Shown: piece after piece, positions 14,036-60,016 of the stretch
Numbering within the stretch: the stretch's first letter is position 1
How the letters are laid out: each line of letters starts with the position of its first letter
Assembly: GCA_944384375.1 (NCBI GenBank)
Contig: CALWTE010000017.1
Location: 1,344-65,343 of the forward strand
DNA: 64,000 nucleotides
DNA from: an uncultured Clostridia bacterium
Lineage (GTDB): Bacteria > Bacillota > Clostridia > Christensenellales > UBA1242
Direction: 5' to 3'
Notes under the pieces: generated by a model
Seen by the model: only the letters and a program-made list of their open reading frames with translations
The model's database searches: none
What the model was told of the DNA's origin: nothing
Translations under genes and position numbers: made by a program

Positions 14036-14068
14036 ATAAGTAACATTTAAAAACTTAATAAAGTTAAT

Positions 14069-14792: not shown

Positions 14793-15018
14793 TCTAAAAT
14801 TTTATATTAAGTAATAAGTATTTGTTTAAGCATTAAAAAATCAAAATGTGTTATGTTCTACTAAAATTTTATTTCTTGTTTGCTTTTTATAAAATAAAAG
14901 TACTTGTTTATAGTGAAAATAAAACTAAAACGACATTTTAAAACTATGCTTGAGTACGTATTTTAATATATTATGTTATAATGACTCTTAAATAAAATTA
15001 CAAAAGGGGATAATTATT

Positions 15019-15360: not shown

Positions 15361-15508
15361 TATCGTAAACTATAAAAAAATATAATAATTTTGTTTTTTG
15401 TGGTTTAAATTAATTAGTCACTTTTTGCATATATTATTAAAAAGAAGTTTAAACAAGATTTTTTTAGTCTATAATTTTTTCAACAAAATGTGAATTTGGT
15501 GGATAACT

Positions 15509-16054: not shown

Positions 16055-17979
16055 AAAGTCGTTTTTAAACTCTCTTAACATAAAAATAAAACAAAGTATT
16101 TTTTTATTTAACAAATAAATAAAGTTAATAAAACGTTTTACTTATTATAGTTTATAAAAAGCTAACTAATACACTATATTTTATAAATGATTAAGCAATT
16201 TTAATAATAAACATTATTTATTAAATACGCAAAGCAACCAAAAACTGCTGATATCCCACAAAATTAAACAATAAAAATTTTTTAAATCTAAAAAAACTGT
16301 GGATAACTTTCTATTTTTTACAAAGTATTATAAAGGTAAAATATAAAAATAATATAAAACCAAATAAAAACAAACTAAATCAAACCAAACCGAGCAAAAC
16401 AAGACGAGACAAGATAAAACTGAATATTAATATTAAATCATAATTACAAAATAACTAACTATTTTTACACAGACCAAAGCAATAAAAACACTAGAAACTG
16501 TAACTGATTCTAAAAAATAACAAACAACATAAACTAACCGCTTTGCAAAGCAAATAATAAAGCAATTTGCGTTTTTTAATAAAAACTTGATATATGCTTG
16601 TTAAGCAGTATTCTAAATATTTACCATACAAACAACTATTTACTTACATTATCTGTTTCACAATAATAACTTTTTTACACGTTTATTATTTTACATCTTT
16701 AACACTTTTAATATAACCAAAAAACAAACAAGAATTTAAAAAGAAAAAAGTTATCCACGTGCATAACTTTTTTTGTCCAAAAAATCTTGTATAAAACTAA
16801 TAGCGTTTTATAAAACAATAAATAGATAATTTAAAATTCCATAAATTTTAATTATAAATTAAATTATAAATAATTACTAAAAATTATTCCTAAAACACTA
16901 TTTAAAGTATCAATTATAAATTTATAATAAAAATTTTTATACGCAAAAAACGCAATAAAGTAGCAAAATTTTGCAGGAATATTGCAAAAAAACAACAACT
17001 TACCTACAAAGAAACAACTATTGCCAAATCAAACTTAAATATCTAGCACAATAACTAAGTGCAAAAAATATATAGAAAAAAATAAGTTAAAAACACTAAA
17101 AACTAGAAATTATATTCACACCTAAAATCAAGTTCTATTTCACATTAAGCATCTACTACGTTAAAAAATTTTTTACTAAAATACAGTAAAAAACTAACAA
17201 AAATTATTAAATTTTTTATAAAACTTTTCCACGTATTTTTAAATTATCAACAACTAAAAAATTACGTAAGCAAAAAAACTTTTTACTTAAAAACAAATCA
17301 AAAAATTATTAAACTTTTTTAGTTTAAAACTAAAACATAATCAAAACAAAACTTTAGTCTTTTTTAACTAGGCAAGTTTATCTTTTTAATATCTGGAATA
17401 ATCTCCACAAACACTAAAAAAATACAAAACATACATTTTGCTACTTTGGATTCAGTTAAAACACTTTAGATAAAGCCTTTTAAAACAATTTTTACCTTAT
17501 CCAAATTACTCAAACTAACCTAAAAACTAAAGTAATAAATGCATTTTACAATTTTTTAAAACAGAAAAACTCCTCGTTCTCCCTTTCTCTAAATTTTTCC
17601 GCTACCAAACATACCAGCTAGATTTCTTACCTTAAAAACCATTGCTATTGTCACGTAAAAACTACTCAAAAACATAACAACAGTTATAACATAAATCTAG
17701 AACGGAAAAACTTTTTACAAAACAAACTTTTTTCTAAACAACCTCCGTTTTTCTTAGACACCTTAGCCTAAAACTTAAAGCAAATTATGGCTATTTAATA
17801 CGGTGGATAACTCTACACTTCCCAGCGAGAAAAACTTATCCACAGGTTTTGTTCACTCAAAACAAAAATTTTTTGAGTACACACATTATCACATAGAGCC
17901 AAGTTAATTGTCAATACTTTGAGACACCTTTTTTTAATTTTAGTTATTTTGCACAAAATCAACTTTTTTAATTTCCCTC

Positions 17980-18588
17980 AAAAAGCCTTTTGTTAAGCCA
18001 AAAACTCGTCGTAAGTAACACGATAAAATTTTTTAATTCCTTTCATCCAATCTATTAACTTATTATTTTTTACCCTGCTAATCATTTCCTTTGCTTTGCT
18101 AATGTGGCTTTCCTTTTTTTATTCGCATCACTTTTCTTTCCTTAAAATTTTCTGCTTCCAGATTCTTTTCTTTTTCTGCTGCTTTCCTGTAACCTACACT
18201 TTTCCTATTCCTTCCTTCTCCTTTTTCCCTTCTCGTACGTTTCTTGCTCCTTAACCTAACCATACTTAACCAGCCATCCATTTGAAATCAAATTTTAGAG
18301 AAAGAATATAAAATATATTTTTTTAATTTTATTTTTAAATAATAGATAAATAGTTATTGTTGTGGAAAAGTGGATATCTTGATAATCTTAGCATAAATAA
18401 TCCCTATTTAAAAAGCTTTATACATAAAAACAGAAAATTTTTTCGTGTGGATTTTTCGTGAATTTCGTATTATTTTTGTGTGTATATTTTGTGAAATTTA
18501 TCAAAATTCACGGGGATAACTAGATTATTTCAGCAATACTTGTAATTTTTTGTATAAGTCAATTTTTTGGCTTAACAAAAGGCTTTTT
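17980..18588. repeat. Perfect 25-bp inverted repeat pair (AAAAAGCCTTTTGTTAAGCCAAAAA) bracketing 559 bp
   Basis: 17980-18004 is the exact reverse complement of 18564-18588. Confidence 0.85.
18060..18290 (+). repeat. Polypyrimidine (T/C) tract of about 230 bp on the + strand
   Basis: Long runs such as cttttctttcc, ttcttttctttttctgctgctttcctg and ttcctattccttccttctcctttttcccttctcg, with very few purines. Confidence 0.8.
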
Positions 18589-19559
18589 TTAAAATTTTAT
18601 TTTTTAGCATCTCCTTTTAAACTTTTTAATTTCACTAAGTAAAGGTGGATTCTTTGAAATTTTACTTAGTTTATATTTTTATTATAAACTAAGTAAAAAA
18701 TTTTTTTAAGCAAATTTTGACATATTTTTTTTTTTAGACTATTAACCAAAATTGTTTAAATTAATCCACATTAAAAAACTTTATCTACAAGGGGTTTTGG
18801 ACACTTATCCACATTTTGCACATTGCGTGGAAAACTAACATTTTGTTGAAAACTACTCATTCCGTACTATTCCCCCAAAAAACCATATTAAAAATTTGCT
18901 TTCTAATAAGCATAACCTACCTCTTATAATAAATTATACAATCTTCTGTATCATAATAAAAACCCGTTATCTAAAGCAAAATATTCTTCAATATTAAATA
19001 TAATATCTAAAAACAGAACACTCAATAAGACTGCTTAATAGTAGTTATAAAAAGGCCATTTATTATCTTCCTATTCTGGCACCACTATAATATGCAATTA
19101 TCCTTCTTTGCCTTCTGAGATTTTTTAATAATTTTAAATGTTTATTAATAGAAATTTGCTTAGGATTTAAGAAAAAAATTTTGTATTTATAATAAAATTA
19201 CATAGAACTTTTATGTGACTTTAATTACTAATAAAAAATGAAATTATATAATTTACTTATAAATAATTAATTTAGATAGAAATTTTACAAAACCAGCATA
19301 TTACTAAATTAAAGTTAGCATGCTAGAAAAATAATCTTGCTCAAATAAACAACAAACTCTCACCCATAGAGCAAGTATGGTAAGTTATAAAAACAAAGTA
19401 GGTTAAACAAGTGAATAAAACAATTAAACCTAAAACATTCAATAAATATATAAGCAATAAAAACTAATATAGAAAAATTAAACCATCTATATTTTTATCA
19501 CTTTTTATATTAAAGAAACTATTGTTAAACAATCGCAAAAGCAAAATATTTATCAACTC

Positions 19560-19588
19560 TTGACAGAATAGGCAAAATTTGATATACT
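19560..19588 (+). promoter_or_regulatory. rpmH promoter TTGACA-N17-TATACT
   Basis: -35 at 19560-19565 and -10 at 19583-19588, 34 nt upstream of the rpmH ATG. Confidence 0.7.
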
Positions 19589-19621
19589 AATATACAATGT
19601 TATTTATACTAGGAGGAGAAA

Positions 19622-19759
19622 ATGAAAAGAACGTTTCAACCCAAAAAGCGTCAACGTAGTAAAGTACACGGTTTCCGTGAACGTATGAAGACAACCAGCG
19701 GACGTAAAGTATTAAAACGTCGTCGTAATCGTGGCCGCAAAGAATTAGTGCGTGCATAA
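19622..19759 (+). CDS. rpmH: 50S ribosomal protein L34
   Basis: Below the ORF-track length cut-off. Hand translation gives [45 protein letters not shown] (45 aa). RBS aggaggag. Confidence 0.95.
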
Positions 19760-19827
19760 ATTTAGGTACTATGCAAGACATAATACCTTATTTTTTTATA
19801 AAAAAACGTTAATTTTAGGTGATTTTT

Positions 19828-20166
19828 ATGTTAAAAAAAGAAAACCGACTAAAAAAAAGAAAAGAGTTTAAGTATATTTACAAAAAAGGTTCCAAAGTTT
19901 ATAGTAAAAATATAACATTAATTAAGATTGACAGTAAGTTTGCACAACCTAAAATTGGATTTTCAGTTAGCAACAAAATCGGTAAAGCGGTTGTTAGAAA
20001 TAAAATAAAGAGACAACTTAGAAATATTGTGTCAGAAGTGGTAAAAAATATAAAGTTTGTAAACTTAATTTTTGTAGCGCTTCCTGGTATTGTAGATTTA
20101 GATTTTAAAACATTAAAGAAAGAAGTCTACTCTTTGTTAATTAAAGGAAAAATAATTAATGAATAA
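19828..20166 (+). CDS. rnpA: Ribonuclease P protein component
   Basis: 'LKKENRLKKRKEFKYIYKKG' and 'KAVVRNKIKRQLR' motifs, and the position directly after rpmH. ATG 19828 behind aggtg is preferred over GTG 19819. Confidence 0.9.
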   Translation: MLKKENRLKKRKEFKYIYKKGSKVYSKNITLIKIDSKFAQPKIGFSVSNKIGKAVVRNKIKRQLRNIVSEVVKNIKFVNLIFVALPGIVDLDFKTLKKEVYSLLIKGKIINE

Positions 20167-20434
20167 ATTTTTTAAGATATTAACTGCTCCTTTAAAATAT
20201 TTTGCCCTTTTTTTTATATACTTATACAAGTATACTATTAGTGTTATTACTCCGTCTTGTTGTATTTATTACCCTAGTTGTTCAACATATATGGTGACAG
20301 CAATACGGCGTTTTGGTATTTTCAAAGGTTTTTATCTGGGTGCAAAACGAATTTGGAGATGTAGACCTAGTTTTTGCGGGGGATTTGACCCTGTACCTGA
20401 TTCTTTAACTGAAAATTTAAGATTTATAGTATAA
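20159..20434 (+). CDS. yidD: Membrane protein insertion efficiency factor YidD
   Basis: 'CCIYYPSCSTYMVTAIRRFGIFKGFYLGAKRIWRCRP..GGFDPVP'. Overlaps the rnpA stop by 8 nt. Confidence 0.9.
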   Translation: MNKFFKILTAPLKYFALFFIYLYKYTISVITPSCCIYYPSCSTYMVTAIRRFGIFKGFYLGAKRIWRCRPSFCGGFDPVPDSLTENLRFIV

Positions 20435-20670
20435 TTTTTATAAAAAAATTTAATTGAATAGTATATGTAAATATAAGTAATATTATATAATTGTAAAAAA
20501 ATTACTTAAAAATAATGCATTTTTTAAAATTTTTAGCGCATTTTTACAGTTTTTAGACTGTTTTTTAACAAAATCAATTAAAATAACCTAAAAAATTTTT
20601 AAAAATTTATATTGTATTTCTTAAATCAATTAAAAAATAAAATTATATTAAATAAATTTTTATAAATTAC

Positions 20671-20745
20671 AAAAAAAACACACAAAAAGTATAAAAAATA
20701 TACTAAAAATCTAAAAAAATTTCAAAAAATATTGAAAAATAAAAA
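20671..20745 (+). repeat. Helically phased A-tract array (8 tracts)
   Basis: Tract centres lie about 9-11.5 bp apart (cacaaaaa gtataaaaaa tatactaaaaa tctaaaaaaa tttcaaaaaa tattgaaaaa). Located between convergent yidD and yidC. Confidence 0.8.
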
Positions 20746-20783
20746 TAATTAAGAATATTTATATAGGATTTGTATAAAATCAA

Positions 20784-20818
20784 GTAAAAAGAAAACGGCT
20801 TTTGACCGTTTTCTTTTT
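20784..20818. terminator. Bidirectional rho-independent terminator at the yidC 3' end
   Basis: Stem gaaaacgg/ccgttttc (20791-20798 / 20806-20813) flanked by A5 and T5. Confidence 0.7.
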
Positions 20819-28924: not shown

Positions 28925-29040
28925 TTATCCACATTTTTAGAACATATATTTTGCACTATTTTTTGTACTTTTTAAGATTTCTGTGGATAAAATGTGTACA
29001 AAAAGGTAAGTTATCCACATTAGTTTTCCACTTATCCACA
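28925..29040. promoter_or_regulatory. Dense DnaA-box cluster: four perfect TTATCCACA boxes in 116 bp
   Basis: Perfect boxes at 28925-28933(+), 28982-28990(-), 29011-29019(+) and 29032-29040(+), plus TTTTCCACT at 29024. Lies between divergent mnmG and the surface-protein gene. Confidence 0.75.
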
Positions 29041-37350: not shown

Positions 37351-39297
37351 ATGGACAAAGATTTTATTCGTGATTTTCCAGATGCAAAATATTTTAATAG
37401 CAAGCGAAAGAAAGTAGAAAAGAGCAATTTTGGGCTGGGGCAGAGAGTGCCGAAAAGCGCGGGAAATAACGACACGGGCTGGTTGCCACTGAAATTAGAA
37501 CAGGTTGACACGACTAAACCTATAATAATTTGTTTTGGTGGCAATGGTACGCTCACTAGCCGCAGTGCGAATTATTATGCAAAATTAGTGCAAGGCTGGT
37601 TGGGCATTCGCGAAGCGCAAGAATATTGCCCTATAATTTCCTTTTACTATGGCAATGTGCCTGACAGCGATACGGGTGTTTTAAATGATGATGAATTGTT
37701 GGAAATTTCACGTGCATTTTTCCTGCCATTGATTCAAGAACACGGCAAACGCCTTGATTTGGAGTCCGCGCAGAAAAATATGCGAAATTTGAATTTTTTC
37801 ACGCATTGTTACGGAGCAAACGTGGTTAAAGAGTTGGCTTTCAACTGTATGGATTTAATGGACGAACTCGGCTATTCCCCAAATGAGCAGAAAGCGATTT
37901 TGTCTCAAATAGTGCAGGTCGGTTATGCGCCTGATGTTATTAACGATTATACAACGAACTTTTTTGTTAAATCTTTTGCTGATTCGCGTTTTGGTTACCG
38001 CTACCGTAAAGAATTAACAAATATAGACGAATTTCCGCCTTATTTAGGACAGGGAAAGTTGATAAGAAATAATAATAATTTAACATTATACGTGGGTAGT
38101 CTAATCGGGGAAGATGATTCAGGACTGGACGAACACGGCACTCGTTATATTTATCGTACTAGGGAATGGAAGACTTTTTATAAACGTAGTCAAGGTGCAA
38201 CCTATTGTATTGCGAACGTACTGGCAAGTGCTGTATTAAATTCTAAAAAGAACGCAATTAACAAGACTTTTATACCTATGACAAGCATTGATGATTTGCA
38301 AAAAATTAATCAAATGACGTTAGATTCTTATAATAACGATATTAATGAAAAGAAACAAAAAGCCATTTATGATAAACAGAAAGCAGATTATGATGAACTA
38401 CATAAAGTCCACCATATTTGCGAGTTGTTGCAGAAAAATAATTTATCCGAAGCCGATATTATAAACGGCAAGGGAAATTTTAGAGAAGTAGTAAAAAGTA
38501 AACAAGTAGATTTTAGCAATTCGCAACTAGGTTTTGTTGCTTCCATTCCTGAACCGCGTTTAATTGAATTAGGCGAAAAATTCTTAAACTTAAATGAAAC
38601 TAAAAATAGAATTATTCGTACGTCCCCACAAGGCATTATTTTAAATAATGGTGAAACTGTGGCTCGTTATGAACAAGATATTGAAGTTATAAAATATGAT
38701 TTGCGAATGCAGTGCGATGGTGTTGATTTGAGTGATAGTTTACGCTATGAGGAATTCGCGATTGAAGACACTAGGGAAATACACATAAATTACAATTATG
38801 GCAGTAAAGAAACCGAACCTGCCCAAAATCTTCAAGAATTACAAGCAAACTGGCAAAAATATGATAAAAATTCCCCAAACTTGCCCGATTTAAATATGTC
38901 TTACGCACAAACTGTGGCGCTAATAAACATTTTAACCCGTTACGAATTGCCTTTTGATAGTTTGAAATTACAGGCAGGCATACATTTAAACAAGCAAGCC
39001 CTTGCCGACGCGATAATTAAAACTGGCTTTACTACGCAACCAAACAAAACCCCAACAGCACTAGAAATACATAATAATTTAACAAACGGAAAAGGAACGC
39101 AAGTAAATTATAATTCCACTCAAATAAATTCAGCGAAAGAAGATTTATCTCCCGAAAATAATCATTGTACTTTTGCAAAAGGAAGTTCTAGCCAAACAAA
39201 TAAAAATACAAATAAAACGAATATTACACATCAAACAAGCGAAAACATCTGCCCCGAAAGTACAACTTCCACAAAAGAACCCGAAATGGGCGAGTAA
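37351..39297 (+). CDS. Hypothetical protein, N-terminal alpha/beta-hydrolase-like region with 'THCYG' in place of a GxSxG nucleophile elbow
   Basis: 648-aa ORF with RBS aaaaggggtaaggggttATG. Contains 'PIIICFGGNGT' and 'LNFFTHCYGANVV'. The C-terminal half is unrecognised. Confidence 0.45.
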   Translation: MDKDFIRDFPDAKYFNSKRKKVEKSNFGLGQRVPKSAGNNDTGWLPLKLEQVDTTKPIIICFGGNGTLTSRSANYYAKLVQGWLGIREAQEYCPIISFYYGNVPDSDTGVLNDDELLEISRAFFLPLIQEHGKRLDLESAQKNMRNLNFFTHCYGANVVKELAFNCMDLMDELGYSPNEQKAILSQIVQVGYAPDVINDYTTNFFVKSFADSRFGYRYRKELTNIDEFPPYLGQGKLIRNNNNLTLYVGSLIGEDDSGLDEHGTRYIYRTREWKTFYKRSQGATYCIANVLASAVLNSKKNAINKTFIPMTSIDDLQKINQMTLDSYNNDINEKKQKAIYDKQKADYDELHKVHHICELLQKNNLSEADIINGKGNFREVVKSKQVDFSNSQLGFVASIPEPRLIELGEKFLNLNETKNRIIRTSPQGIILNNGETVARYEQDIEVIKYDLRMQCDGVDLSDSLRYEEFAIEDTREIHINYNYGSKETEPAQNLQELQANWQKYDKNSPNLPDLNMSYAQTVALINILTRYELPFDSLKLQAGIHLNKQALADAIIKTGFTTQPNKTPTALEIHNNLTNGKGTQVNYNSTQINSAKEDLSPENNHCTFAKGSSSQTNKNTNKTNITHQTSENICPESTTSTKEPEMGE

Positions 39298-39393
39298 ACC
39301 AAAAACCCTAACAAAATAAAAATTTCGCCTATTTTCAAGCACAATCATCAAGCGAGCGATATATATAAATGAATAAAAAATTTAAAATAAAAA

Positions 39394-39455
39394 AGGAATT
39401 AGTTCCGAGTTGCGTTTCCGCAAGATAAGTGGCCTTTGGGGCTGAACTAATTCCT
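39394..39455 (+). other. GC-rich structured hairpin: 12-bp perfect stem, 38-nt loop with an inner hairpin; terminator or small RNA
   Basis: aGGAATTAGTTC (39394-39405) pairs with GAACTAATTCCt (39444-39455). The loop contains ttgcg-tttc-cgcaa. Confidence 0.4.
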
Positions 39456-39480
39456 ATATATTATTATATTAAAATAAAGT

Positions 39481-39586
39481 AAAAAATCAACATAAAAACA
39501 TAAAAAATTAATAAAAAACATTAAAAAACTATAAAAAACGTAAAAAAACAGCAAAAATATGGCGAAAATGCTAAAAACAACAAAAA
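39481..39586 (+). repeat. Helically phased A-tract array (11 tracts)
   Basis: A-tract starts at 39481, 39494, 39502, 39513, 39523, 39533, 39542, 39553, 39566, 39574 and 39582, with a mean spacing of about 10 bp. Confidence 0.85.
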
Positions 39587-39672
39587 TGCTTTAAAGCTTA
39601 ATATATTTTTAATTTTAACTAGCAATTAACTAAATAATAAAAAATATATATATAATATATATAAGATATGTT

Positions 39673-39700
39673 GTACGTGTCAACAATTGTTGACACGTGC
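39673..39700. repeat. Second copy of the 28-bp palindrome (27/28 identical; the inner 24 bp are perfect)
   Basis: GTACGTGTCAACAATTGTTGACACGTGC. Confidence 0.9.
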
Positions 39701-40071
39701 ATCTTTTATCACTTTATCTTTATTATAAATAATATTGATTATGGAATGTAATAGCTTGATTCTTTAGTTATGCCGCTTTTTGTTTTGTTATGTTGCTGTT
39801 GATTTTAAAAACTTGTTGCTTCCTTTGTTTTTTGTATTTTTCCTTTAAAGAAGTTTTTTAATATTTTATTGATTGATTTTTTTTTAATTTTTTATATGTG
39901 AATAGGTTTTAAGTGTATTTTTTTAGCGATTTTTCATAAAATAACATTAATTAGAATTTATGTAAGGCTCTAAAATCAAAGTTTTTTGAATAGGTTTTTT
40001 GCGGGGGAATTTTAATAATCAAAAAACACCTAAAAAATTACGAAAAAATATGGAAAAAATTATTCGTTTGC

Positions 40072-40101
40072 TTGCTTTTTTCAAAATCAATATTGTATAA
40101 T
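40072..40101 (+). promoter_or_regulatory. Promoter TTGCTT-N18-TATAAT with TGn extension, directly downstream of an A-tract array (40021-40062)
   Basis: -35 at 40072-40077 and -10 at 40096-40101, 28 nt upstream of ATG 40129. Confidence 0.55.
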
Positions 40102-40128
40102 AATTAAAATATATTCTAAGGGGTAACT

Positions 40129-42318
40129 ATGAGCAAAAAAAAGAAACAGGAAGAAGTTACGCAAGCCCCAGCCACGATTAAGGTCGTTGAAAAGAAGCGC
40201 GGTGGTTGTGGTACGTTCTTTTTGGGCTTTATTTTCTGCTTTATTTTCTTATTTGTGGCAATCGGCGGAACGGTCTTGTATCTTTACTACAATCTCACTT
40301 TGCGCCAGATTGAAAACACAATCGGCGTGGACTTGTCCTTTATTGACACCAGTCTACACGACTATTCGCTAAAAGAATTGCTTAACCTAGGTCTAAATGA
40401 AAAGGACAAAATCACCGAAGCCACTTTGGAGAGTTTAAACGCTGATTTTGACTTGCAGTTGCCTGAAACCATTCCAGGCACGCAGTTAAACATTGCGCCA
40501 GTGTATAACGAAGTGATTGCTTTTCAGGGGCAACAAGTGCAGGTGAAGAAAATTCGCATTCAAGATATAATGAACAACCTTGACGAATTTGTTTCCGCCG
40601 TACTACCTAAGGTTTACGACCATGCGACCGTGCAACAAGTGGTGGACACCTTGCAAACGACCATTCTTGACGATTTAAACTACCCAGCGCTAAACGGCGA
40701 GTATTATAATATAGGTACTACCGAACAGCCAAACTACAAAAAACTTGCCGATTTGACCATTACGCAGGCGTTAGAGCAGTTACCTGCGCATTTCGGGAGC
40801 GAAAATTTGACCGTTCAAGAACTAGCAAATGCGGCTGGGCTGTCACTTTTCCCTGATATTGAGCCAGGGCAAGACGATATTTATGCCGAATTAAAGGCTT
40901 TGAATGTAACCCAAATGACGACCGAAGATTTGACGACCAGCATAACGGGTGAAATTCTTGTAAATTTGGTTGACTTATCTGCATACGATTTTACGCAGAC
41001 GGAAGAATTTTACAACACCAACTTAAACGATTTGGGCAATTACTTCTTGACCCTTTCGCTCGGGCAATTTATCACTGCCGAAGGTGTGGCAACTGATACC
41101 GAAACTATGTTTGCAAAACCTGAATTTATCAACATTCCGCGCGACACAAAATTAATTAACTTCAAGGCAACTGCCGATGCGCTCACATTAAGCCAAATTT
41201 TTAGTGCGGAAGATTTAGAGAAATTATCGCCAGAGCAACAGGCCTTAACAGTGGCTGAGTATCTAGCAAATTACGGTGGCGAAAATACATTCGCAGTGGC
41301 TAGCGGAATTGATTGTTCTAGTTACTCGGGCTATGTTGCTTTATTTGGTAATACGACCGCTACAACGTATGCCGAAACGATGGCGAGTGCCAGCACATAC
41401 GAATATTTGGGTAACGACAATGTTACAGCAATCGCTGGAATTGCGGACTTGACTTTGCAAGAGATTACCGAAAGTGATGACGCGATTAGCCTAATGCTAG
41501 AGAATTTTGGCACTTTGGGGGACTTACTAGGTGGCGAGCAAACGGGCTTGTTTGGAATTATTAGCGAAGTGCAAATTGCCGATTTATTAAATGACGCAAG
41601 CACGGCTATTCAAAATGCCTTGACGGGCGAAAAAGCGCAAACCACGACTTTGGATAGTTTGCTGGGCGCTGATTCAAGTAGCGACCCGCTAATCGGCAGA
41701 GTAATGACGGTAACTGTGAGTGAATTGTTCGGGGGCGACCCTGGTACTGCGATTAAAAATAAGTTAATCGGTACGGAAGGGAATTACACAACGTTAGGCG
41801 AATTGCTGAACATTCAGGCTGGCACAGGGCAAAATGCAACCTTTATTGAAATTATTGCAAACCTAACCATGAAAGATTTAATCGGCGAAGGTGCAAATGC
41901 TGGTGCGGTAATTGAAGGTGCCGTTAGCGACATTATTGACACGGTAACACTTGCCGATGTGTTTAGCGCCAAAGAAGCCGCCGCAAACAGGGTGCTAAAC
42001 GAGTTGTACAACCTTGCTAACTACCCTGACGGTGCATTACCGATTAAAGATATTCCAGCGCAGTTAAACAACGTTCATTTAAGTGCGGTAGTGGGCGAGA
42101 ACAAACCTAAAATATTTAATTTGCTAGTCAATTACGATGCTTTGACGCTTAGCACGTTAGACAAAATGCAATTAAAAACAAACATTACAATAGACGACTT
42201 GATTGATGCGGGTGTAATTGAAGATAGCCTTAATTACGACAAGACTATTGCTGGTACGCCGATTAGACATATGAGTCTAGAAGCCGTTCTAGAAATCGTT
42301 GGGCAATCTGCACAATAG
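40129..42318 (+). CDS. Hypothetical N-terminally membrane-anchored protein with a large extracytoplasmic domain
   Basis: 729-aa ORF with RBS taaggggtaactATG. One TM segment, 'GTFFLGFIFCFIFLFVAIGGTVLYLYY', follows a K-rich N-terminus. Confidence 0.55.
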   Translation: MSKKKKQEEVTQAPATIKVVEKKRGGCGTFFLGFIFCFIFLFVAIGGTVLYLYYNLTLRQIENTIGVDLSFIDTSLHDYSLKELLNLGLNEKDKITEATLESLNADFDLQLPETIPGTQLNIAPVYNEVIAFQGQQVQVKKIRIQDIMNNLDEFVSAVLPKVYDHATVQQVVDTLQTTILDDLNYPALNGEYYNIGTTEQPNYKKLADLTITQALEQLPAHFGSENLTVQELANAAGLSLFPDIEPGQDDIYAELKALNVTQMTTEDLTTSITGEILVNLVDLSAYDFTQTEEFYNTNLNDLGNYFLTLSLGQFITAEGVATDTETMFAKPEFINIPRDTKLINFKATADALTLSQIFSAEDLEKLSPEQQALTVAEYLANYGGENTFAVASGIDCSSYSGYVALFGNTTATTYAETMASASTYEYLGNDNVTAIAGIADLTLQEITESDDAISLMLENFGTLGDLLGGEQTGLFGIISEVQIADLLNDASTAIQNALTGEKAQTTTLDSLLGADSSSDPLIGRVMTVTVSELFGGDPGTAIKNKLIGTEGNYTTLGELLNIQAGTGQNATFIEIIANLTMKDLIGEGANAGAVIEGAVSDIIDTVTLADVFSAKEAAANRVLNELYNLANYPDGALPIKDIPAQLNNVHLSAVVGENKPKIFNLLVNYDALTLSTLDKMQLKTNITIDDLIDAGVIEDSLNYDKTIAGTPIRHMSLEAVLEIVGQSAQ

Positions 42319-42359: not shown

Positions 42360-44168
42360 ATGACTGAAGAAATCACACAAAAGAAGGGACGTGGCAGACC
42401 ACGTAAGTACCCTGTGGAAACGGAGCCAAAAGAAAAGAGACCACGTGGCAGACCAAAAAAACCTGTTGACCCTGAGACGGCGAATTTGCCTAAAAGACCG
42501 CGTGGCAGACCGCGTAAAGAAGGCGTGGAAAGTGCGCCAAAAGAAAAAAGGCCACGCGGTAGGCCTAAGAAACAACCTATTTTTGCCGACGTGCAGGAGT
42601 TGGAAAGCGTAAAGGAATATGCTACCCCTAGGGCTACCGAAATCGTGGAAAATGCTCCCGAAATTAGCGAAAACGAAAATTTAATCGCCACACAGCCTAC
42701 CGAAACTGTGGTAAGTTATCAAGATGTTGAATCTAAATGGGGTTCTGCGCCTAACAAAGAAGAAAACGAAAGTATTTTCCCTAAGACACAAACCGAGCAA
42801 GAGCCTACGGCAAATAGTACTGCCGAGCCTTTTGCATATAAAAATGACGCATCTGAGGGCGAAAATGATTTTGCTGAGATTGAAACTTTAAATACGCAAT
42901 CCATTTTAAAGAATGATTTGGATACGGCAGAGCAAGACGAAACCACACAAGACGAAAATACCGCCGAATATTCAAATTACGAAGAATCCGACGCACAAAA
43001 TGATAGAGTTGTGCAACCTGTGGAAGTAATAGATTTTACGCAGGAAGATGAAACAGAAATGCGTGCGGGGAACACACCAGCCCGAGATGCTTTAGAACAA
43101 AAAACAACAATTTTTAAAAATAAGGTTTCAAATATTTATCCTGCTAAACACTTGCAAGAAGGTGATGTGCAAGGCGGAATGAAAGTGGCTTACAACGAGC
43201 CAAAAATGGAGAATACTCTCACTACGCAAAAATTAAATATTAGCACTCCACATCGGCCAGTACAACCAGTCCAAAAAGTGATAAACGAGCCTATTTATAA
43301 GACGGCTTTTAGCGGTACGGACAAGGTTGTAGTGGTTACGGGGGCTACTAGTGGTCTTGGTTTTGCTATGGCGCGAGAACTAGCAAAACTCGGGCAAACC
43401 GTTATTGCAGTGGGTAGGCGACCTAGTTTTTGCCGTGATGCGCGCAACGAAATTTTGAGCGAATTTCCTAATGCCAAGATATACTACCTTGTGGCTGATA
43501 TGAGTCTAATGAGCCAAGTGCGAATTCTTGCTGACGAAATCAAGAAAAAACTTGCTGAAATCGGCAGAGACGCTATTGACGTGCTGATTCACAATGCGGG
43601 TGTGCAGACGAATATGCACAAAATCACTTACGAAAATCACGAGTACATGTGGGCTACAAACTACTTGTCTGTGTTCTTGCTGACTCGCGAATTGCAACCG
43701 CTCCTTGATAAATCAAAAGATGCGCGCGTGATTACGACGACAAATTCCCAAAATTACAAGACAAAACTCAACTGGGCTGATATTCGTGGCGTTGCAGAAA
43801 AAGCGAATGATGATGTATATAACCAAACAAAGTTAGCCGATTTGATGTTTGCGCTGGAATACGACCACCGCTATTCTAATAGAGACGACTTGCACGCTTA
43901 TTGTGTAGACCCTGGGCTAGTCAACACCGAATTACGTACCAAAAACACTAGCGGGATAAAGAAGTTATTCCAAAAACACTTGCAAAATAAGGGTAAATCA
44001 GTGGAGCAAGGCATTGAAACTACGATTTATCTAGCAATGGCAGAAAAATTGCCTAGCAACGTGGTTTTATATGCTAACAAAAAGCCAACCGAGCCTAGCA
44101 AGTACGCGCTAGACCCTAGAAATAGGGCAGCACTTTGGCGCTACTCCGAATTAGAATTATTCGGCTAA
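42360..44168 (+). CDS. Fusion protein: four N-terminal AT-hook motifs, an acidic linker and a C-terminal short-chain dehydrogenase/reductase domain
   Basis: 'GRGRPRK', 'RPRGRPKK', 'RPRGRPRK' and 'RPRGRPKK' within aa 10-71 (nt 42387-42572). The SDR part has 'VVVVTGATSGLGFAMAREL', 'NAG' and 'YNQTK'. Confidence 0.8.
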   Translation: MTEEITQKKGRGRPRKYPVETEPKEKRPRGRPKKPVDPETANLPKRPRGRPRKEGVESAPKEKRPRGRPKKQPIFADVQELESVKEYATPRATEIVENAPEISENENLIATQPTETVVSYQDVESKWGSAPNKEENESIFPKTQTEQEPTANSTAEPFAYKNDASEGENDFAEIETLNTQSILKNDLDTAEQDETTQDENTAEYSNYEESDAQNDRVVQPVEVIDFTQEDETEMRAGNTPARDALEQKTTIFKNKVSNIYPAKHLQEGDVQGGMKVAYNEPKMENTLTTQKLNISTPHRPVQPVQKVINEPIYKTAFSGTDKVVVVTGATSGLGFAMARELAKLGQTVIAVGRRPSFCRDARNEILSEFPNAKIYYLVADMSLMSQVRILADEIKKKLAEIGRDAIDVLIHNAGVQTNMHKITYENHEYMWATNYLSVFLLTRELQPLLDKSKDARVITTTNSQNYKTKLNWADIRGVAEKANDDVYNQTKLADLMFALEYDHRYSNRDDLHAYCVDPGLVNTELRTKNTSGIKKLFQKHLQNKGKSVEQGIETTIYLAMAEKLPSNVVLYANKKPTEPSKYALDPRNRAALWRYSELELFG

Positions 44169-44386
44169 ATTAATTAGAATATTTAAACACCTTAAACTAT
44201 TTCTTATTCTATTTTATTAAATGCAAAAAACACAAAAAATACGCAAAAACTATAAAAAATATGAAATAAAATATTTTTGTTGTTAGTTATATTAGGTGGA
44301 GAAAAATTATTTTTATGGTGCAATTTTTCAATAAAAGGTAAAATTTTCTTTAACCAAAAGTACAATTACGCAATGGAGAAAAAGTT

Positions 44387-44944
44387 ATGGAATCTAATTT
44401 TGTACCAGCCTATAAACTAAGGGACAAAGACGAGTTAAAAAAGATACCAAATGACAAACCTGGCTACTATAAATGGTGGGCAAGTTATGATACTCTGCAA
44501 ATAATTTTAGATAAATTGAATATGCAATTTGACGGTATAAAAAATTATTTAGAAGTTAAAAAAGGTTACTATTGTATTTATGTAGGTGTAGCCATAAAAG
44601 AATCATTACGAGCACGTCTAAACTGGCATATTAACCAAATTAACAAACCCACAAATGTAAAAAGTGGCACATTATCCACTTTACGAAAAACCATTTCAAG
44701 TTTAGTGGGTAAAAATATGTTAGATACAGATGCCACGAATGATTTTATAAATAAATTGATGGTGGAGTATTATTTGTTTGACGATTCTATTAAATCACAA
44801 ACAGCAAAAGATAAAATTCACAAAATTGAAAATGATTTGCTTAATTGTGATACGCTGTATATTTTAAATATTCAAGACAACCACCACAAACTATCACCTA
44901 AAAAAGAATTAAAAAAATTAAGAAAAATTGCTAGACAAATTTAA
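44387..44944 (+). CDS. GIY-YIG nuclease superfamily protein (stand-alone)
   Basis: 'KPGYYKWW' (GIY-like), 'YCIYVGVA' (YIG-like) and 'LRARLNWH'. RBS aatggagaaaaagttATG. Confidence 0.5.
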   Translation: MESNFVPAYKLRDKDELKKIPNDKPGYYKWWASYDTLQIILDKLNMQFDGIKNYLEVKKGYYCIYVGVAIKESLRARLNWHINQINKPTNVKSGTLSTLRKTISSLVGKNMLDTDATNDFINKLMVEYYLFDDSIKSQTAKDKIHKIENDLLNCDTLYILNIQDNHHKLSPKKELKKLRKIARQI

Positions 44945-45087: not shown

Positions 45088-45122
45088 CAAAAAAAAGAAT
45101 GCTTTTGCAAGCATTCTTTTCT
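45088..45122. terminator. Bidirectional terminator at the cvpA 3' end
   Basis: Stem gaatgctt/aagcattc (45097-45116) flanked by A8 and a T-rich run. Confidence 0.7.
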
Positions 45123-46140: not shown

Positions 46141-47514
46141 TTACTCTTTTTTAAGTTCGGCTGTAATTTCGTTAATGATTTTTTTGATTTGCTTGTTAGT
46201 TTTTAGCAATTCCATTATTTTGTCACGTGCGTGAATTATTGTGGTGTGGTCTCTGCCGAAAATTTGCCCTATTGTGGCTAGTGGAATGGCTAGTTGCGAC
46301 CACATAAGATATATACAAATTTGTCGCGGTTCCACAATTTCTTTGTTACGTTTACGCCCTGTTAAGTCCTTTTGGTCAATAGTGAAGTAATCACAAACCG
46401 CATTAATGATGCGTTCTTGCGTAATTTTTGCACCACTTACTACGCATTGTTCACACTCTTTTTCTAGTACTTCTTCCATATCCTCACGAGTGGCAACCGT
46501 TTTGCCGTGCAAGTTCGCCAAAAAGTAAATCTTACGCAAAATTGCCTCAATTTCACGAATGTTGAAGTTTGCTAAACGTTCAGCAAGTTCGTAATCAATG
46601 CCTTTTTCAAATTCAAAGCGCTCTAATTCAATTTTCTTTTGAATGATTAAGAGCCTTGTCTCAAAGTCTGGCGGCTGAATATCTTGCATAAACCCACTAG
46701 CGAAACGGGAACGCAACCTGTCTTCTAGTGTAGCAATGTCTTTAGGTGGGCGGTCGCTAGAAATTATAATTTGCTTGCCCGCTTGATATAAATCGTTAAA
46801 GGTGTTAAAAAATTCCTCTTGTACACCTTTTTTATTGCTAATGAATTGAATATCATCAATAAGTAGTACGTCTGCTTGCCTGTATTTTTTGTGAAAAGCG
46901 TCCATTCCTTTTTCGTGGCGTACACGCACTGCCTCAACGAATGCATTTGTAAACTGCTCGCAAGTAACATATACAATATTTAGGTTAGTGGTCTTATGCT
47001 CCCAAATGTAGTTGCCGATTGCGTGGAGTAGGTGAGTTTTACCCAGTCCCGAACCACCATATATGAATAGTGGGTTAAAGCGAACGGCAGGTGCTTCTGC
47101 AACAGCACGAGCGGCAGCGTAAATTACTTGATTAGTCGTGCCTACCACAAAATTATCAAATGTATAACGTGGGTTAAAAGGGTTTTGCAAAGTTGCAGGT
47201 TTGGTGTCTAATACTTGTTCACTTGTAGGGTGCGTGAGATTGAATTTTTCTATATACTCGTCTTTTTCTTCGGGAATCAGCACGTGCACGTCTTCTAGAT
47301 TAAAATGCTCTTTTAGTGCATCTCTCATACGCTTTAAGTAAACGCCGTAAATCTGTGTACGACACATTTCACTAGGGGCAACAAGCACCAGTTTGTCGTC
47401 TTCAATGTTAATCGGCTGTAACGGGTTTATCCACAAATCCATACCAACAGAACTGATATTTTTCGCAAAATCTGCCAGGCACAGCGCCCATTGTCTATCC
47501 AAAAAACTCTGCAT
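46141..47514 (-). CDS. dnaA: Chromosomal replication initiator protein DnaA
   Basis: 'LFIYGGSGLGKTHLLHAIGN', 'LLIDDIQF', 'IISSDRPP' and a domain IV 'IVEPRQICIYLMWSQLAIPLATIGQIFGRDHTTIIHA'. Start chosen at ATG 47514, 8 nt after AGGAG. Confidence 0.95.
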   Translation of the reverse strand: MQSFLDRQWALCLADFAKNISSVGMDLWINPLQPINIEDDKLVLVAPSEMCRTQIYGVYLKRMRDALKEHFNLEDVHVLIPEEKDEYIEKFNLTHPTSEQVLDTKPATLQNPFNPRYTFDNFVVGTTNQVIYAAARAVAEAPAVRFNPLFIYGGSGLGKTHLLHAIGNYIWEHKTTNLNIVYVTCEQFTNAFVEAVRVRHEKGMDAFHKKYRQADVLLIDDIQFISNKKGVQEEFFNTFNDLYQAGKQIIISSDRPPKDIATLEDRLRSRFASGFMQDIQPPDFETRLLIIQKKIELERFEFEKGIDYELAERLANFNIREIEAILRKIYFLANLHGKTVATREDMEEVLEKECEQCVVSGAKITQERIINAVCDYFTIDQKDLTGRKRNKEIVEPRQICIYLMWSQLAIPLATIGQIFGRDHTTIIHARDKIMELLKTNKQIKKIINEITAELKKE

Positions 47515-47872
47515 ACTCATATCTCCTTTGTCCACTAAAAATTAATGTGGCGAGTGCAAAAACTTCTGCCACAATCAAACGTAAATTAATGTTATCACAA
47601 GAATTTTAAAAAGTAAAGTTTTAAGGACAGGTTTTTTTGAAGTTTTTGAATATGACAATCTGTAATTTATTTATAATAAATTAAATTTGCCAAATTTTTT
47701 AAAATTTTTGTTAAAATCTAGTTGAGTTTTATTTAGGTTGATAAGATTTAAGGATAAAAATATATTTATCAAATTTTTATTTTACTTCTTTAAAATAGAA
47801 GCGTTAGTATTATTTGCTTTACTATTAACTTAAAAAATATTATAATTTTTTTATAAAATTTAAAAAAGAGTA

Positions 47873-50920: not shown

Positions 50921-53131
50921 ATGGCAGACAAAAAAGAAGTCAGTAGCATTAGATACAGTATAGACGGCAAAAAGGGTAAATACACGGGGACTGTAAATAC
51001 GGGGTTGTTGAATAACCAGCCAGACGGTTACGGGAAAATTGTTTTTATGAATGGTGATGTAATAGAAGGGCGTTTTAAAAATGGCGCTTTTATTAAGGGC
51101 AAAGCAATTTCTAGCAAGGGTACAGTTTTAGAAGGTGAGTTTGATAACTTGCATTTTTTAAGCGGAAAAATTACATTCCCAAATGGCGACTACATAACGG
51201 GAGCGACTGACTCCAAAACAAAGCAGTTTAAGACTACAGATTTTAGAAAAACTTATAAATTTGGCGAAGTGATTCAAGGGCAATATGCTTATAATGATAA
51301 AACAGCGCCAAAAATACAGGCAGTTATTACTTATCCAGACGGCAACACCATTGCGGGCGAATTTGCCGAAGTTGAAGCCCCAAAGGAATACTATCCTTTA
51401 AACTTTTATTTAGGCACGTATGCTTGCACAAAGGCACAGGCTACATTTAATCTTTCGCAAAATTCTAAGATAAAAGCAAAACTTACGGGCGATATTACTA
51501 AATACGATTATGATTCATTTGCGATTAAAGGCGTGTATGAATATGATTCGGGAGAAACCTACAAAATTTTTGAAGGCGATTTCGTGATAAGGACAATGCC
51601 TTATAGTGACAACCCGTACAACGATAGTTCTTACCATAATTTTAGCGAAAATTTTGAGAGCCATTCCGATGATGCACAAGACGAATGCAAGAAGAATTAC
51701 GAAAAAGCCTTCAAAGTGAAAAATCTTGACTATATTTATTCCATTCTTTTTGAACGTGGTTCCGTTTTGATAAAAGACAATAATGGAAGTTTTAATGGGG
51801 TAAAGTTGGGGATAGAGCAGGCAAATTCAAATAATTATATCACCGAATCTTGTATATATAAAGGTACTTTGACGAATAAAGACAACACAACTAAGATTAC
51901 AGGTGAATTTGATTTAATGCTAAATCCTTTATCTGGTACTGTGGAAATTTTGCCGCACGAAAGATTTGCTGCGACTTTTAAAGGTAAGTTTAGCAAAACT
52001 CACAAGCATAACCATGATTCGTTTAATACCACGTTTGAGGGGATATTTGATTCGGCTAAGACGCATAGAGAAGGTATCTTTGACGGAGATATTGTTTTAA
52101 AACGTGGCGCAAACAAAATGCTAAGTGCAATGGACGTTAAACTAGATTTTATAAAAGGTAGTTTTACACAAGTTATGCTAAACGGCAACACCTTTGACGG
52201 AAAAATTTACGAACCACACAGTTTGGAGCAAGAGTTGTACAATATTACGCAATCTAGTTTTGCAAAGGATATTTATGCAATAGGTACTCTGCGCAGAGAA
52301 GATAGCAAGGGTAATTTGATTTTTAATAAACACGGGCTTTTTGATAAAAACTACAATCATTTAGAAGGCGATGTGGACGAAAAACGCACCCTTGATGATA
52401 GAACAGTTCATTTTGTAGGAAACAAAACTTTTAATATTGAACAGAATATGTTTGGTTATTCGGGGCTGCTTAAATATGCCGATAATGGCGATTATTATGA
52501 CGGCGAATTCGCAGAAGATTTTGCTTTTCAAAAAGGTAAACTACGTGAGCATTACGAAAACGGTACAATTTTTACGGGCGCTACACAAGATTTGCAAACT
52601 TATGAAGGCAAACTAGAACGCAAAGACGACTTTTGGCAAAGTGGTAACTTTACTTTGGAAAATGGCGAAATTACATTTACAAAAGGTAATACATTAGTTT
52701 ATTTTGATAGGCCAGACAAGTTATATTGTTTTGCTCAGTATGACGAAAATGGCTTTGAAAATTTTGATAACTACAAGTACATTTGCAATATCAAGTCTAA
52801 TAAAAATCAAAAAACTAATTTGATTGCAGCTAATAGTATTAGTGAAGCGGTGGTTGAATACGATTATCGCGAAAAACTAGAAAACCCAACCATAAATAAC
52901 GATGCCGAAGTCTATACAAAAGAACAAATGCAAAAAATGATTGATAATGTCGTAGCAAAATATGAAGCACAAATTGAAAAAATGAATAATGATAAGAAAG
53001 CAAAAGAACGTGCGGTTTCACAAGGTTTGGGCGGAATCGCGGTCGCACTGCACGGAATAGGGGACGAACTAGAAAAAGAAGTGCAAAAACGTAAAGATAT
53101 ACAGCAACAGCAACTAGCAAAACAACAGTAG
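50921..53131 (+). CDS. MORN-like repeat protein with a C-terminal coiled-coil
   Basis: 736 aa with recurring 'G.Y.G....G..DGYGK..F.NGD..EG.F.NG' type units. RBS aggtggaaatATG. Confidence 0.5.
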   Translation: MADKKEVSSIRYSIDGKKGKYTGTVNTGLLNNQPDGYGKIVFMNGDVIEGRFKNGAFIKGKAISSKGTVLEGEFDNLHFLSGKITFPNGDYITGATDSKTKQFKTTDFRKTYKFGEVIQGQYAYNDKTAPKIQAVITYPDGNTIAGEFAEVEAPKEYYPLNFYLGTYACTKAQATFNLSQNSKIKAKLTGDITKYDYDSFAIKGVYEYDSGETYKIFEGDFVIRTMPYSDNPYNDSSYHNFSENFESHSDDAQDECKKNYEKAFKVKNLDYIYSILFERGSVLIKDNNGSFNGVKLGIEQANSNNYITESCIYKGTLTNKDNTTKITGEFDLMLNPLSGTVEILPHERFAATFKGKFSKTHKHNHDSFNTTFEGIFDSAKTHREGIFDGDIVLKRGANKMLSAMDVKLDFIKGSFTQVMLNGNTFDGKIYEPHSLEQELYNITQSSFAKDIYAIGTLRREDSKGNLIFNKHGLFDKNYNHLEGDVDEKRTLDDRTVHFVGNKTFNIEQNMFGYSGLLKYADNGDYYDGEFAEDFAFQKGKLREHYENGTIFTGATQDLQTYEGKLERKDDFWQSGNFTLENGEITFTKGNTLVYFDRPDKLYCFAQYDENGFENFDNYKYICNIKSNKNQKTNLIAANSISEAVVEYDYREKLENPTINNDAEVYTKEQMQKMIDNVVAKYEAQIEKMNNDKKAKERAVSQGLGGIAVALHGIGDELEKEVQKRKDIQQQQLAKQQ

Positions 53132-59663: not shown

Positions 59664-59943
59664 CTAATTAGGCTAAATTTAGAGCATCAAAAATCGTATA
59701 ATTTTGCCATTTTCAAACAAGCCCAAAAATCGTTAAAATTTAGCATTTTTATTTAAGCCAAAAAACCGTCTATTTTTGAGATTTTTAAACAAGTCTAAAA
59801 ACCATAAAATTGAGATTGTCAAAAATGCTCGCAAAGCCTTTTGCTAAGGGGAATTTTCATTCCTAAACATTATATCAAAAAATTGCAAAAATGTCAATTT
59901 TTAAAGGCAAAAAAACTAACTTTTTCCACCTGCAAAAATTGTC

Positions 59944-60016
59944 AAATTTTCACTCCAAATTTCACCTAAAATTTTACCCTAAATTCCACTTAAAGTTTTA
60001 CCCTAAATTCCACCCC
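59944..60016 (+). repeat. Tandem repeat, 12-13 bp x 6 (AAATTYYCACYY), with a 24-bp higher-order unit
   Basis: Units: aaattttcactcc / aaatttcaccta / aaattttaccct / aaattccactta / aagttttaccct / aaattccacccc. ttttaccctaaattccac is repeated exactly at 59972 and 59996. Confidence 0.85.

Follow-up and report, generated by a model that had tools for sequence, protein, structure and literature searches.

The gene described here occupies positions 42,360 to 44,168 on the forward strand of a 64,000-nucleotide stretch of DNA from an uncultured Clostridia bacterium (the window). It encodes a 602-amino acid (aa) protein in which four AT-hook motifs and a long acidic linker precede a short-chain dehydrogenase/reductase (SDR) domain whose canonical catalytic serine is replaced. 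The next gene upstream encodes a membrane-anchored acidic protein, referred to below as the partner, and together they form a two-gene module. We favor the view that a non-canonical, NADP(H)-binding SDR of the cytoplasm, already paired with this membrane-anchored protein, was later tethered to phased A-tract DNA by AT-hooks that one clade acquired; we put its probability at roughly 45%. AT-hooks and SDR domains are known building blocks. Their combination, the clade-specific loss of the serine and the pairing with a fold-orphan membrane protein appear to be undescribed.

The open reading frame (ORF) starts with ATG, and a GAGGTG ribosome-binding site lies 7 nucleotides (nt) 5′ of the start. 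Structure was predicted with AlphaFold2 (AF2) from a 39-sequence family alignment. The parts of the gene are as follows.

42360..44168, + strand: AT-hook-linker-SDR gene, 602 aa (ORF call, Pfam, database search, family alignment)
42387..42572, + strand: array of four AT-hooks (Pfam AT_hook above gathering score; near-invariant in the family)
42387-42407, + strand: hook 1, GRGRPRK, aa 10-16
42438-42461, + strand: hook 2, RPRGRPKK, aa 27-34
42495-42518, + strand: hook 3, RPRGRPRK, aa 46-53
42549-42572, + strand: hook 4, RPRGRPKK, aa 64-71
42585..43289, + strand: acidic disordered linker, aa 76-310 (net charge −30; both length and sequence hypervariable)
43077..43151, + strand: linker island 1, a predicted helix (aa 240-258) and then near-invariant PAKH (P261, A262, K263) (alignment, AF2)
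43230..43259, + strand: linker island 2, K-L-N-I-S-x-P-x-x-P, aa 291-300, with S295 and P300 near-invariant (alignment)
43317..44165, + strand: SDR domain of the POR/RDH/WWOX-like branch, aa 320-602 (Pfam, NCBIfam, PDB, AF2, Foldseek)
43743..43745, + strand: codon of Asn462, at the canonical catalytic-serine position (alignment to VSS of PDB entry 3rd5, family column)

A preliminary description of this DNA, made from the letters alone, had pointed out four AT-hook cores at aa 10-71, and their sequences are exactly as it gave them. The Pfam search that it proposed matched both expected domains. AT_hook (PF02178) scored 20.9 bits against a gathering score of 17.4, with the R-G-R-P core present, and adh_short (PF00106) matched aa 322-530 with an E value of 6.7e-27. 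The structure prediction that it also proposed gave a confident SDR fold, with a predicted local distance difference test score (pLDDT) of >90 for aa ~315-602. Residues 1-310 were predicted to be disordered except for the helix at aa 240-258, and pLDDT in the linker was <50. The acidic low-complexity linker of that description was thus recovered at aa 76-310. By region, the net charge is +16 for the hooks, −30 for the linker and +6 for the SDR domain.

The hooks are near-invariant in 37/39 homologues, although the overall identity of these proteins is merely 37-79%. Over the same 39 sequences the linker ranges from 107 to 246 aa, is mostly acidic and cannot be aligned. Since the hooks are kept while the linker is unalignable, they are under selection and do not represent chance low complexity. 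Codons in the hook-coding stretches differ synonymously among the four copies, which indicates that the repeat is maintained at the protein level. The GRP cores start at aa 12, 30, 49 and 67, 18-19 aa apart, and spacings of 17-19 aa are found in nearly all family members. Main-clade proteins have 3-6 hooks, short forms 1-2. Outside this ORF, no RGRP motif occurs in any reading frame of the 64-kb window. The hooks are predicted to bind the minor groove of A/T-rich DNA, with indirect support from the co-variation with phased A-tracts described below. The two conserved islands in the linker may be short linear motifs for some interaction.

Several canonical AT-hooks with an acidic disordered region are also the build of HMGA1 and HMGA2, and multivalent minor-groove binding to A/T runs would be expected by this likeness. 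The hook cores in the window, (K/R)(P/G)RGRP(K/R)K, are close to those of HMGA1. In contrast, HMGA proteins are ~100 aa long, eukaryotic, built of three AT-hooks and an acidic C-terminal tail, and without an enzyme domain, whereas here the hooks stand N-terminal to a 290-aa SDR in a bacterium. The protein is not a member of the HMGA family, as it has 602 aa, an SDR domain and a place on a bacterial contig with dnaA, gyrA and gyrB; the hook motif itself is too short to infer common ancestry. A bacterial parallel is CarD of Myxococcus xanthus, a global regulator in which an HMGA-like acidic region and AT-hooks are fused to a globular domain (PMC2919716). However, the hooks of CarD are C-terminal, its globular part is the RNA polymerase-interacting CarD_TRCF domain, and it belongs to Myxococcota, whereas our protein has N-terminal hooks and comes from uncultured Clostridia. 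No CarD_TRCF domain was found in the 602-aa protein, for which Pfam at E ≤ 1 gave SDR families and AT_hook alone.

The SDR part had been called a complete classical domain. All motifs named for it are present: TGxxxGxG as TGATSGLG at 327-334, NAG as HNAG at 411-414 and YxxxK as YNQTK at 487-491, so that the Rossmann, TGxxxGxG and NNAG-type features are in place. However, the Asn-Ser-Tyr-Lys tetrad is incomplete. Asn434, Tyr487 and Lys491 are kept and the serine is replaced by Asn462, which aligns with the second Ser of VSS in 3rd5 and lies 25 residues before Tyr487. The replacement is clade-wide. In the 39-sequence family the column at position 462 contains N in 17, T in 12, D in 7 and S in 3 proteins. 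In a comparison alignment it was N8, T5, D4 and S1 for 18 clade members and S119, T1 for 120 ordinary single-domain SDRs, the closest neighbours in the census reported below.

TGATxGxG, Asp380, Asn434 and Tyr487 are invariant in the family, and Lys491 is present in 37/39. A G-R-R signature of the NADP(H) type is found at 352-354. The second position after strand beta-2 is R or K in 17/18 clade members and N, S or D in ordinary neighbours. By established SDR coenzyme rules, this G-R-R/K pair predicts NADP(H) binding. Cofactor binding looks conserved, whereas canonical carbonyl-reductase chemistry does not. In one subclade (P0033-P0038, loci L082/L083) the NAG motif (now IN-C-x) and the PG motif are lost and the substrate loop is remodelled, but four hooks, TGxxxGxG, the Tyr and the partner gene are still there. 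These losses suggest further drift from catalysis.

Among PDB sequences the best match to the SDR domain was 3rd5, an uncharacterised mycobacterial SDR (E 2.4e-18). Foldseek gave a probability of 1.00 to many SDRs, with LPOR 7jk9 and 6l1h as the best matches (TM-score 0.73), followed by YciK and CBR1. The best NCBIfam models, PRK06197, PRK05854 and PRK06196, scored 114, 110 and 109 bits, far below their respective cut-offs (268, 282 and 414). From these matches we place the domain by homology in the POR/RDH/WWOX-like branch of classical SDRs and in no curated subfamily.

With this branch it shares the fold, the three motifs, the 25-residue spacing from the Ser position to the Tyr and the C-terminal tail. 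RDH12 has the same Ser-Tyr spacing, and the C-terminal segment Y.NKKP.EPS.YALD..NR.ALW of our domain resembles the tail of RDH-like SDRs. WWOX is alike in a further respect, as a binding module (its WW domains) is joined to the same type of SDR. The domain in the window differs from the branch in the replaced Ser, the extra basic residue after beta-2 and the hook array at the N-terminus. Eukaryotic RDH-like SDRs have an N-terminal membrane anchor.

In a word-indexed search of 5.8 billion proteins, ~38 clusters (90% identity) showed this architecture, with lengths of 460-630 aa. The window protein was also met on an ENA metagenome scaffold of 85.7 kb. Many of them carry a precomputed annotation of AT_hook plus adh_short. 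All are derived from metagenomes or metagenome-assembled genomes, and the only source name given was 'SDR family NAD(P)-dependent oxidoreductase [Clostridia bacterium]'. We also ran an exhaustive HMMER census with a family profile on 1.84 billion representatives clustered at 50% identity. There were 37,140 SDR-like matches, and just five of them (P0025, P0003, P0030, P0018 and P0034) matched the profile end to end, which puts the architecture in about 5-6 clusters at this level. Beyond these, the census gave P0040, a short form with two hooks, the hookless sister P0135 and some fragments. From 617 and 428 bits the scores then fall to ≤232 bits, where ordinary SDRs of 280-300 aa are found. Hook arrays alone scored 150-224 bits (P0042, P0204, P0249), so any other protein with several hooks and an SDR domain should have been listed; none was present in the listed range. 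A profile search of genome contigs gave mostly generic SDRs; there was no family member among the matches listed, the best of which was 38% identical in the SDR domain only. In the literature that we searched, no bacterial AT-hook-SDR protein is described. The architecture is thus rare and undescribed, as had been proposed, and where it is annotated it is taken for a generic SDR.

In the hookless sister P0135 the partner gene is present and Thr stands in place of the catalytic Ser. Pairing with the partner and loss of the Ser are therefore both older than the hooks. On the sequences compared, hook number rose from 0 through 1-2 to 3-6 while the long acidic linker grew alongside, and the hooks are best regarded as a late addition to an older module of an SDR and a membrane protein. 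This order runs against the primacy of DNA binding that the preliminary description implied. The module also changes quickly. In the relative inferred to be the source of P0018 and P0116, GyrB is 91% identical to that of the window, whereas the SDR protein (P0018) is ~56-61% and the partner (P0116) ~47-51% identical; the module thus evolves much faster than housekeeping genes.

The gene for the partner and its putative promoter are placed as follows.

40072..40101, + strand: putative promoter of the two-gene unit, −35-like TTGCTT at 40072-40077, 18-nt spacer, perfect TATAAT at 40096-40101 (read from the sequence)
40129..42318, + strand: partner gene, 729-aa protein (ORF, charge and hydropathy, AF2, synteny)

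The partner consists of a basic N-tail (+5), one hydrophobic transmembrane helix (about aa 26-55) and a large, all-helical C-terminal domain that has a net charge of −66, lacks Trp and contains repeated '..TLGDLLG..' units. The positive-inside rule predicts an N-in/C-out topology. In the N-tail K22, G26, C27 and G28 are invariant or near-invariant (G-C-G). The AF2 model is an array of short helices with a mean pLDDT of 79. No family match was found in Pfam, NCBIfam, PHROGs, PADLOC or, by profile, PDB sequences, and Foldseek found no match to its fold in the PDB (best E 5). The 'T-L-x-D-L-L-G-G-D-P..A-I' units and the short helix pairs suggested a helix-hairpin-helix DNA binder like ComEA. We rejected this candidate on the net charge of −66, the absence of any helix-hairpin-helix Pfam match at E ≤ 1 in 23 members and the absence of a structural match.

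In 9/9 independent loci a protein of 664-948 aa without a Pfam match is encoded directly 5′ of the SDR gene, on the same strand and 21-362 nt away. These loci are the window, L081 (P0023), L082/L083 (P0034), L084 (P0018), L087 (P0013), L088 (P0030), L089/L090 (one-hook P0039), L092 (two-hook P0040) and L091 (hookless P0135). The upstream proteins are all homologous to the 729-aa protein of the window (BLASTP E 3e-49 to 1e-158); that of L081 is 42% identical to it in alignment. A separate search gave 23 partner clusters, many of them on contigs that match SDR-family contigs in length.

Co-transcription of the two genes had been suggested from the 41-nt gap between them. The gap is correct and contains no terminator-like site, and both genes have good ribosome-binding sites, that of the partner being AAGGGG at 40119-40124. 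Together with the TATAAT promoter and the synteny in all nine loci, this makes co-transcription likely. The promoter itself is inferred: a consensus promoter scan did not call the site at 40072..40101, where the −35 element is weak.

Some observations were made around the unit. A 30-nt perfect inverted repeat, TGTACGTGTCAACAATTGTTGACACGTGCA, with a 13-bp stem and followed by a T-rich run, lies at 39672-39701, ~375 nt past the nearest upstream ORF and ~430 nt 5′ of the partner gene. The scan scored it as a terminator; as a TTGACA-containing palindrome it could equally be the operator of a dimeric regulator. Directly 3′ of the SDR gene is a GIY-YIG_2 (PF20815) gene at 44387-44944, and the first terminator-like hairpin on the + strand (45093-45120) comes only after it. 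No other locus has this gene in the corresponding place, so we regard it as a probable lineage-specific insertion outside the module.

Phased A-tract arrays flank the module and were found throughout the window, with 3-6 tracts each. Those next to the module are as follows.

39502..39558, + strand: six A-tracts phased ~10 bp, intergenic, 5′ of the module
40021..40059, + strand: four A-tracts phased 10-11 bp, directly 5′ of the putative promoter
44225..44259, + strand: four phased A-tracts just 3′ of the SDR stop codon

ORFs of at least 100 aa cover just 71% of the window, and the other 18.4 kb has a GC content of 22.4%. We counted as a phased pair two successive same-base tracts (A5+ or T5+) that start 10-11 bp apart. 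The non-ORF DNA contains 50 such pairs, compared with 10.1 ± 3.4 in dinucleotide-preserving shuffles. The abundance of phased arrays in this genome, noted in the preliminary description, was thus borne out. For the comparison among relatives, first-order Markov shuffles gave the expectation. In six loci whose genomes encode 3-6 hooks, 40.7 kb of intergenic DNA contain 113 phased pairs, 5.4 times the expectation, with enrichment at every one of the six. In four loci whose genomes encode 0-2 hooks, 10.0 kb of intergenic DNA contain 2 phased pairs, 0.93 times the expectation. Intergenic GC is similar in the two groups (20-33% with many hooks and 25-32% with 0-2 hooks), and tract density is similar too. 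Hook number therefore co-varies with A-tract phasing, which is suggestive and is the sole evidence that bears directly on the target of the hooks. An extended spacer of 18-19 residues (~60 Å) spans one helical turn (34-37 Å), so neighbouring hooks could sit in neighbouring tracts on the same side of the DNA.

Hook arrays also occur on other proteins. Among the hook-only matches were glycogen-branching enzymes (GlgB) with C-terminal repeats of RGRPKKP[IV]DPE.ANKPK. This unit nearly matches RGRPKKPVDPETANLPK of the window protein, in the spacer region between hooks. Other carriers are a Lon protease, an IS transposase, the unannotated 635-aa enzyme-like protein P0061 and IscU/NifU-like proteins, whose arrays are very large. 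The gene of the tagged GlgB belongs to a MalQ-GlgB-GlgA-GlgP operon of the ordinary kind, in a genome where A-tract phasing appeared weak, and that of the tagged IscU comes after a cysteine desulfurase gene. From their distribution, AT-hook arrays behave as a transferable appendage on proteins with non-DNA substrates. PhaM of Ralstonia eutropha is a nucleoid-tethering adaptor with lysine-rich, histone-H1-like repeats. It resembles the hook-tagged GlgB and IscU in that a basic, disordered DNA-binding tail attaches a non-DNA enzyme or granule system; it differs in having no AT-hooks and in being an adaptor, not an enzyme fusion. A 15-hook stand-alone protein was also seen. The hook-array proteins recorded (P0054/L095:10001-12331, P0204/L096:2110-4200, P0062, P0063, P0061 and P0042) have periods of 16-22 aa.

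In the tether reading that we favor, the four hooks, 18-19 residues apart, would insert into the narrow minor groove of A/T runs. Their multivalency would give the best binding to phased arrays (3-6 tracts, 10-11 bp apart), which fill the intergenic DNA. The acidic disordered linker would be a lengthy spacer and perhaps also an auto-inhibitory tail like those of HMGA and CarD. The SDR domain would bind NADP(H). With the Ser of the tetrad gone, it may work as a reductase of a specialised kind, or as a sensor or scaffold that binds a dinucleotide, rather than as an ordinary carbonyl reductase. The hooks would be a portable localisation device, added late, that places the protein on DNA and does not set its biochemical role. 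The outcome of tethering might be plain nucleoid localisation or partitioning, as guessed for the tagged GlgB and IscU.

Several points weigh against the late-tether reading. The co-variation of hooks with A-tracts amounts to roughly one phylogenetic contrast, with 10 kb of few-hook intergenic DNA. AT-rich Firmicutes commonly have phased A-tracts 5′ of their promoters, irrespective of the AT-hook proteins present. The bulk of the partner is predicted to be extracellular, which leaves its 25-aa cytoplasmic tail as the sole possible contact with the SDR protein. Tyr and Lys are kept in the active site, and real catalysis with Asn, Thr or Asp in place of Ser is conceivable. The portable tag is also a generalisation across lineages: the GlgB genome is distant from that of the window (LeuRS 43% identical), and the 64-kb window holds no second hook protein.

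The protein could instead be, along the lines of the preliminary description, a redox-sensing nucleoid-associated or transcription factor, in which occupancy of the SDR domain by NADP(H) or NADP+ would change hook engagement with A-tract arrays near promoters and so couple gene expression or DNA architecture to the redox state. This follows the logic of Rex, NmrA/HSCARG and CtBP, with which our protein shares the concept of a dehydrogenase-like NAD(P)(H)-binding domain of impaired catalysis coupled to DNA or chromatin; it has no sequence-family match to them in Pfam or NCBIfam, and Rex has a winged helix. The lost Ser with retained cofactor-binding residues fits such a sensor, as does the subclade in which NAG and PG motifs have decayed and hooks and partner are kept. 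A-tract arrays stand immediately 5′ of promoters, that of the module included, and the acidic tail beside the hooks is shared with HMGA and with CarD, a global regulator (PMC2919716). However, the Ser was lost before the hooks came, as the hookless sister indicates, and its loss is hence no adaptation to DNA-bound sensing. The strict pairing with a membrane protein is left unexplained. Identical hook arrays on GlgB and IscU speak against hooks being specific to regulators, and from hooks of the same type on these two and on Lon, a portable tether is favored over a dedicated transcription factor. In NmrA and HSCARG, atypical SDR-fold sensors, the catalytic Tyr is lost, whereas in the AT-hook-SDR family it is invariant and the Lys is kept as well. 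On balance we consider a redox sensor doubtful. Another reading is a tether between chromosome and envelope, perhaps for origin anchoring, in which the hooks would hold A-tract DNA and the short, basic cytoplasmic tail of the partner would dock on the linker motifs or on the SDR domain. Functional analogies are the RacA-DivIVA pair of Bacillus and, in eukaryotes, the lamin B receptor, which binds chromatin and depends on NADPH. Co-linearity with the membrane-anchored protein in every locus, the conserved residues in its cytoplasmic tail and the short motifs (helix plus PAKH, NISxPxxP) kept in an otherwise unalignable linker agree with this, and the lineage has the sporulation genes yabP and yabQ, found in the locus of one relative. 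The module lies ~11 kb from a DnaA-box cluster and the GC-skew minimum and 2 kb from dnaA. Origin markers are beside it in several relatives, namely parAB-yidC-rnpA-rpmH in L082, mnmE in L088 and a yyaC-like DUF1256 gene in L087 and L089. However, there are none within 10 kb of the module in L081 or L084, and proximity to the origin may be inherited synteny. The A-tract arrays are spread over the window and not confined to the vicinity of oriC. The hookless sister pair cannot tether DNA, so envelope tethering would be a derived function at best, and we hold it to be quite improbable.

The plainest alternative is an ordinary soluble reductase whose basic N-terminus binds RNA or another polyanion, or is a neutral low-complexity expansion. 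It agrees with the intact SDR fold, the kept Tyr and Lys, the NADP(H) signature, the fast-evolving linker and the databases, which call the protein a generic SDR. It does not agree with the near-invariance of the R-G-R-P cores and their basic flanks amid drifting surroundings, with the protein-level selection seen in the synonymous differences between hook repeats, with the fixed hook spacing of 17-19 aa, or with the loss of a Ser that 119/120 ordinary neighbours retain. That the hooks are irrelevant is unlikely because they are conserved, and the ordinary reductase as a whole seems very improbable. The tether reading may also be widened. Multi-hook arrays and genome-wide phased A-tracts might have co-evolved as an HMGA-like read-out, with the tracts as docking rails onto which hooks load selected proteins. 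Here 3-6 hooks ~18 aa apart would match 3-6 tracts one helical turn apart; the cargo would be a non-canonical SDR linked to an envelope protein in this lineage and GlgB, IscU or Lon elsewhere. Such co-evolution is unlikely in our estimate. If true, it would provide a concrete reader for prokaryotic A-tract periodicity, the physiological role of which has been described as unclear (PMC3940949).

If the hooks do dock on phased A-tracts, the module would offer a handle on what reads the 10-11 bp periodicity of many prokaryotic genomes, and on whether portable HMGA-like tags let bacteria use the nucleoid as a scaffold that carries enzymes or sensors. It would also be a bacterial addition to the few dehydrogenase-fold proteins that were recruited to chromatin or DNA. 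The module is a fast-evolving two-gene unit specific to abundant, uncultured gut Clostridia.

The window is a chromosomal origin region, with genes for PolA, an SMC/AAA protein, MnmG, MnmE, DnaA, GyrA and GyrB. It contains 44 DnaA boxes compared with 18.8 ± 5.1 expected, and the cumulative GC-skew minimum is at about 22-28 kb, beside the following cluster.

28925-29040: four perfect DnaA boxes (TTATCCACA) in a span of 115 bp, with mnmG on one side and the gene of a 1506-aa GLUG-motif protein on the other

This site is the probable oriC, and it is unusual in lying ~17 kb from dnaA (46141-47535). GC is higher at 40-44 kb (0.42 vs about 0.30), which raised the possibility of a foreign origin of the module. 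We discarded this idea because values of 0.40-0.43 also occur in other long coding stretches of the window and the intergenic GC content is 22%, so the contrast is one of coding against non-coding DNA. For the SDR protein, PADLOC and PHROGs gave a 15-bit match at chance level and a generic FabG-like SDR only, and for the partner they gave none; a phage or defence origin is unsupported by these two collections. An Rfam search of the window gave no match at or above a gathering score.

Coding density is low for a bacterium, for example at 13000-15500, 16054-20817 and 39297-40129. The stretch at 16-20 kb has a GC content of 0.23-0.26, strong negative GC skew, several perfect DnaA boxes and no ORF of at least 150 aa. 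Three long ORFs, at 37351-39297 (648 aa), 50921-53131 (736 aa) and 9396-11510 (704 aa), have no Pfam match at E ≤ 1e-5; the 648-aa ORF has no NCBIfam match either and ends in a long Asn/Thr/Ser-rich low-complexity tail. Two tandem repeats lie just 5′ of gyrB, one at 59688-59817 with a 36-bp unit in ~3.2-3.6 copies and the other at 59943-60016 with a 24-bp unit, AAATTTTACCCTAAATTCCACCTA, in ~2.9 copies.

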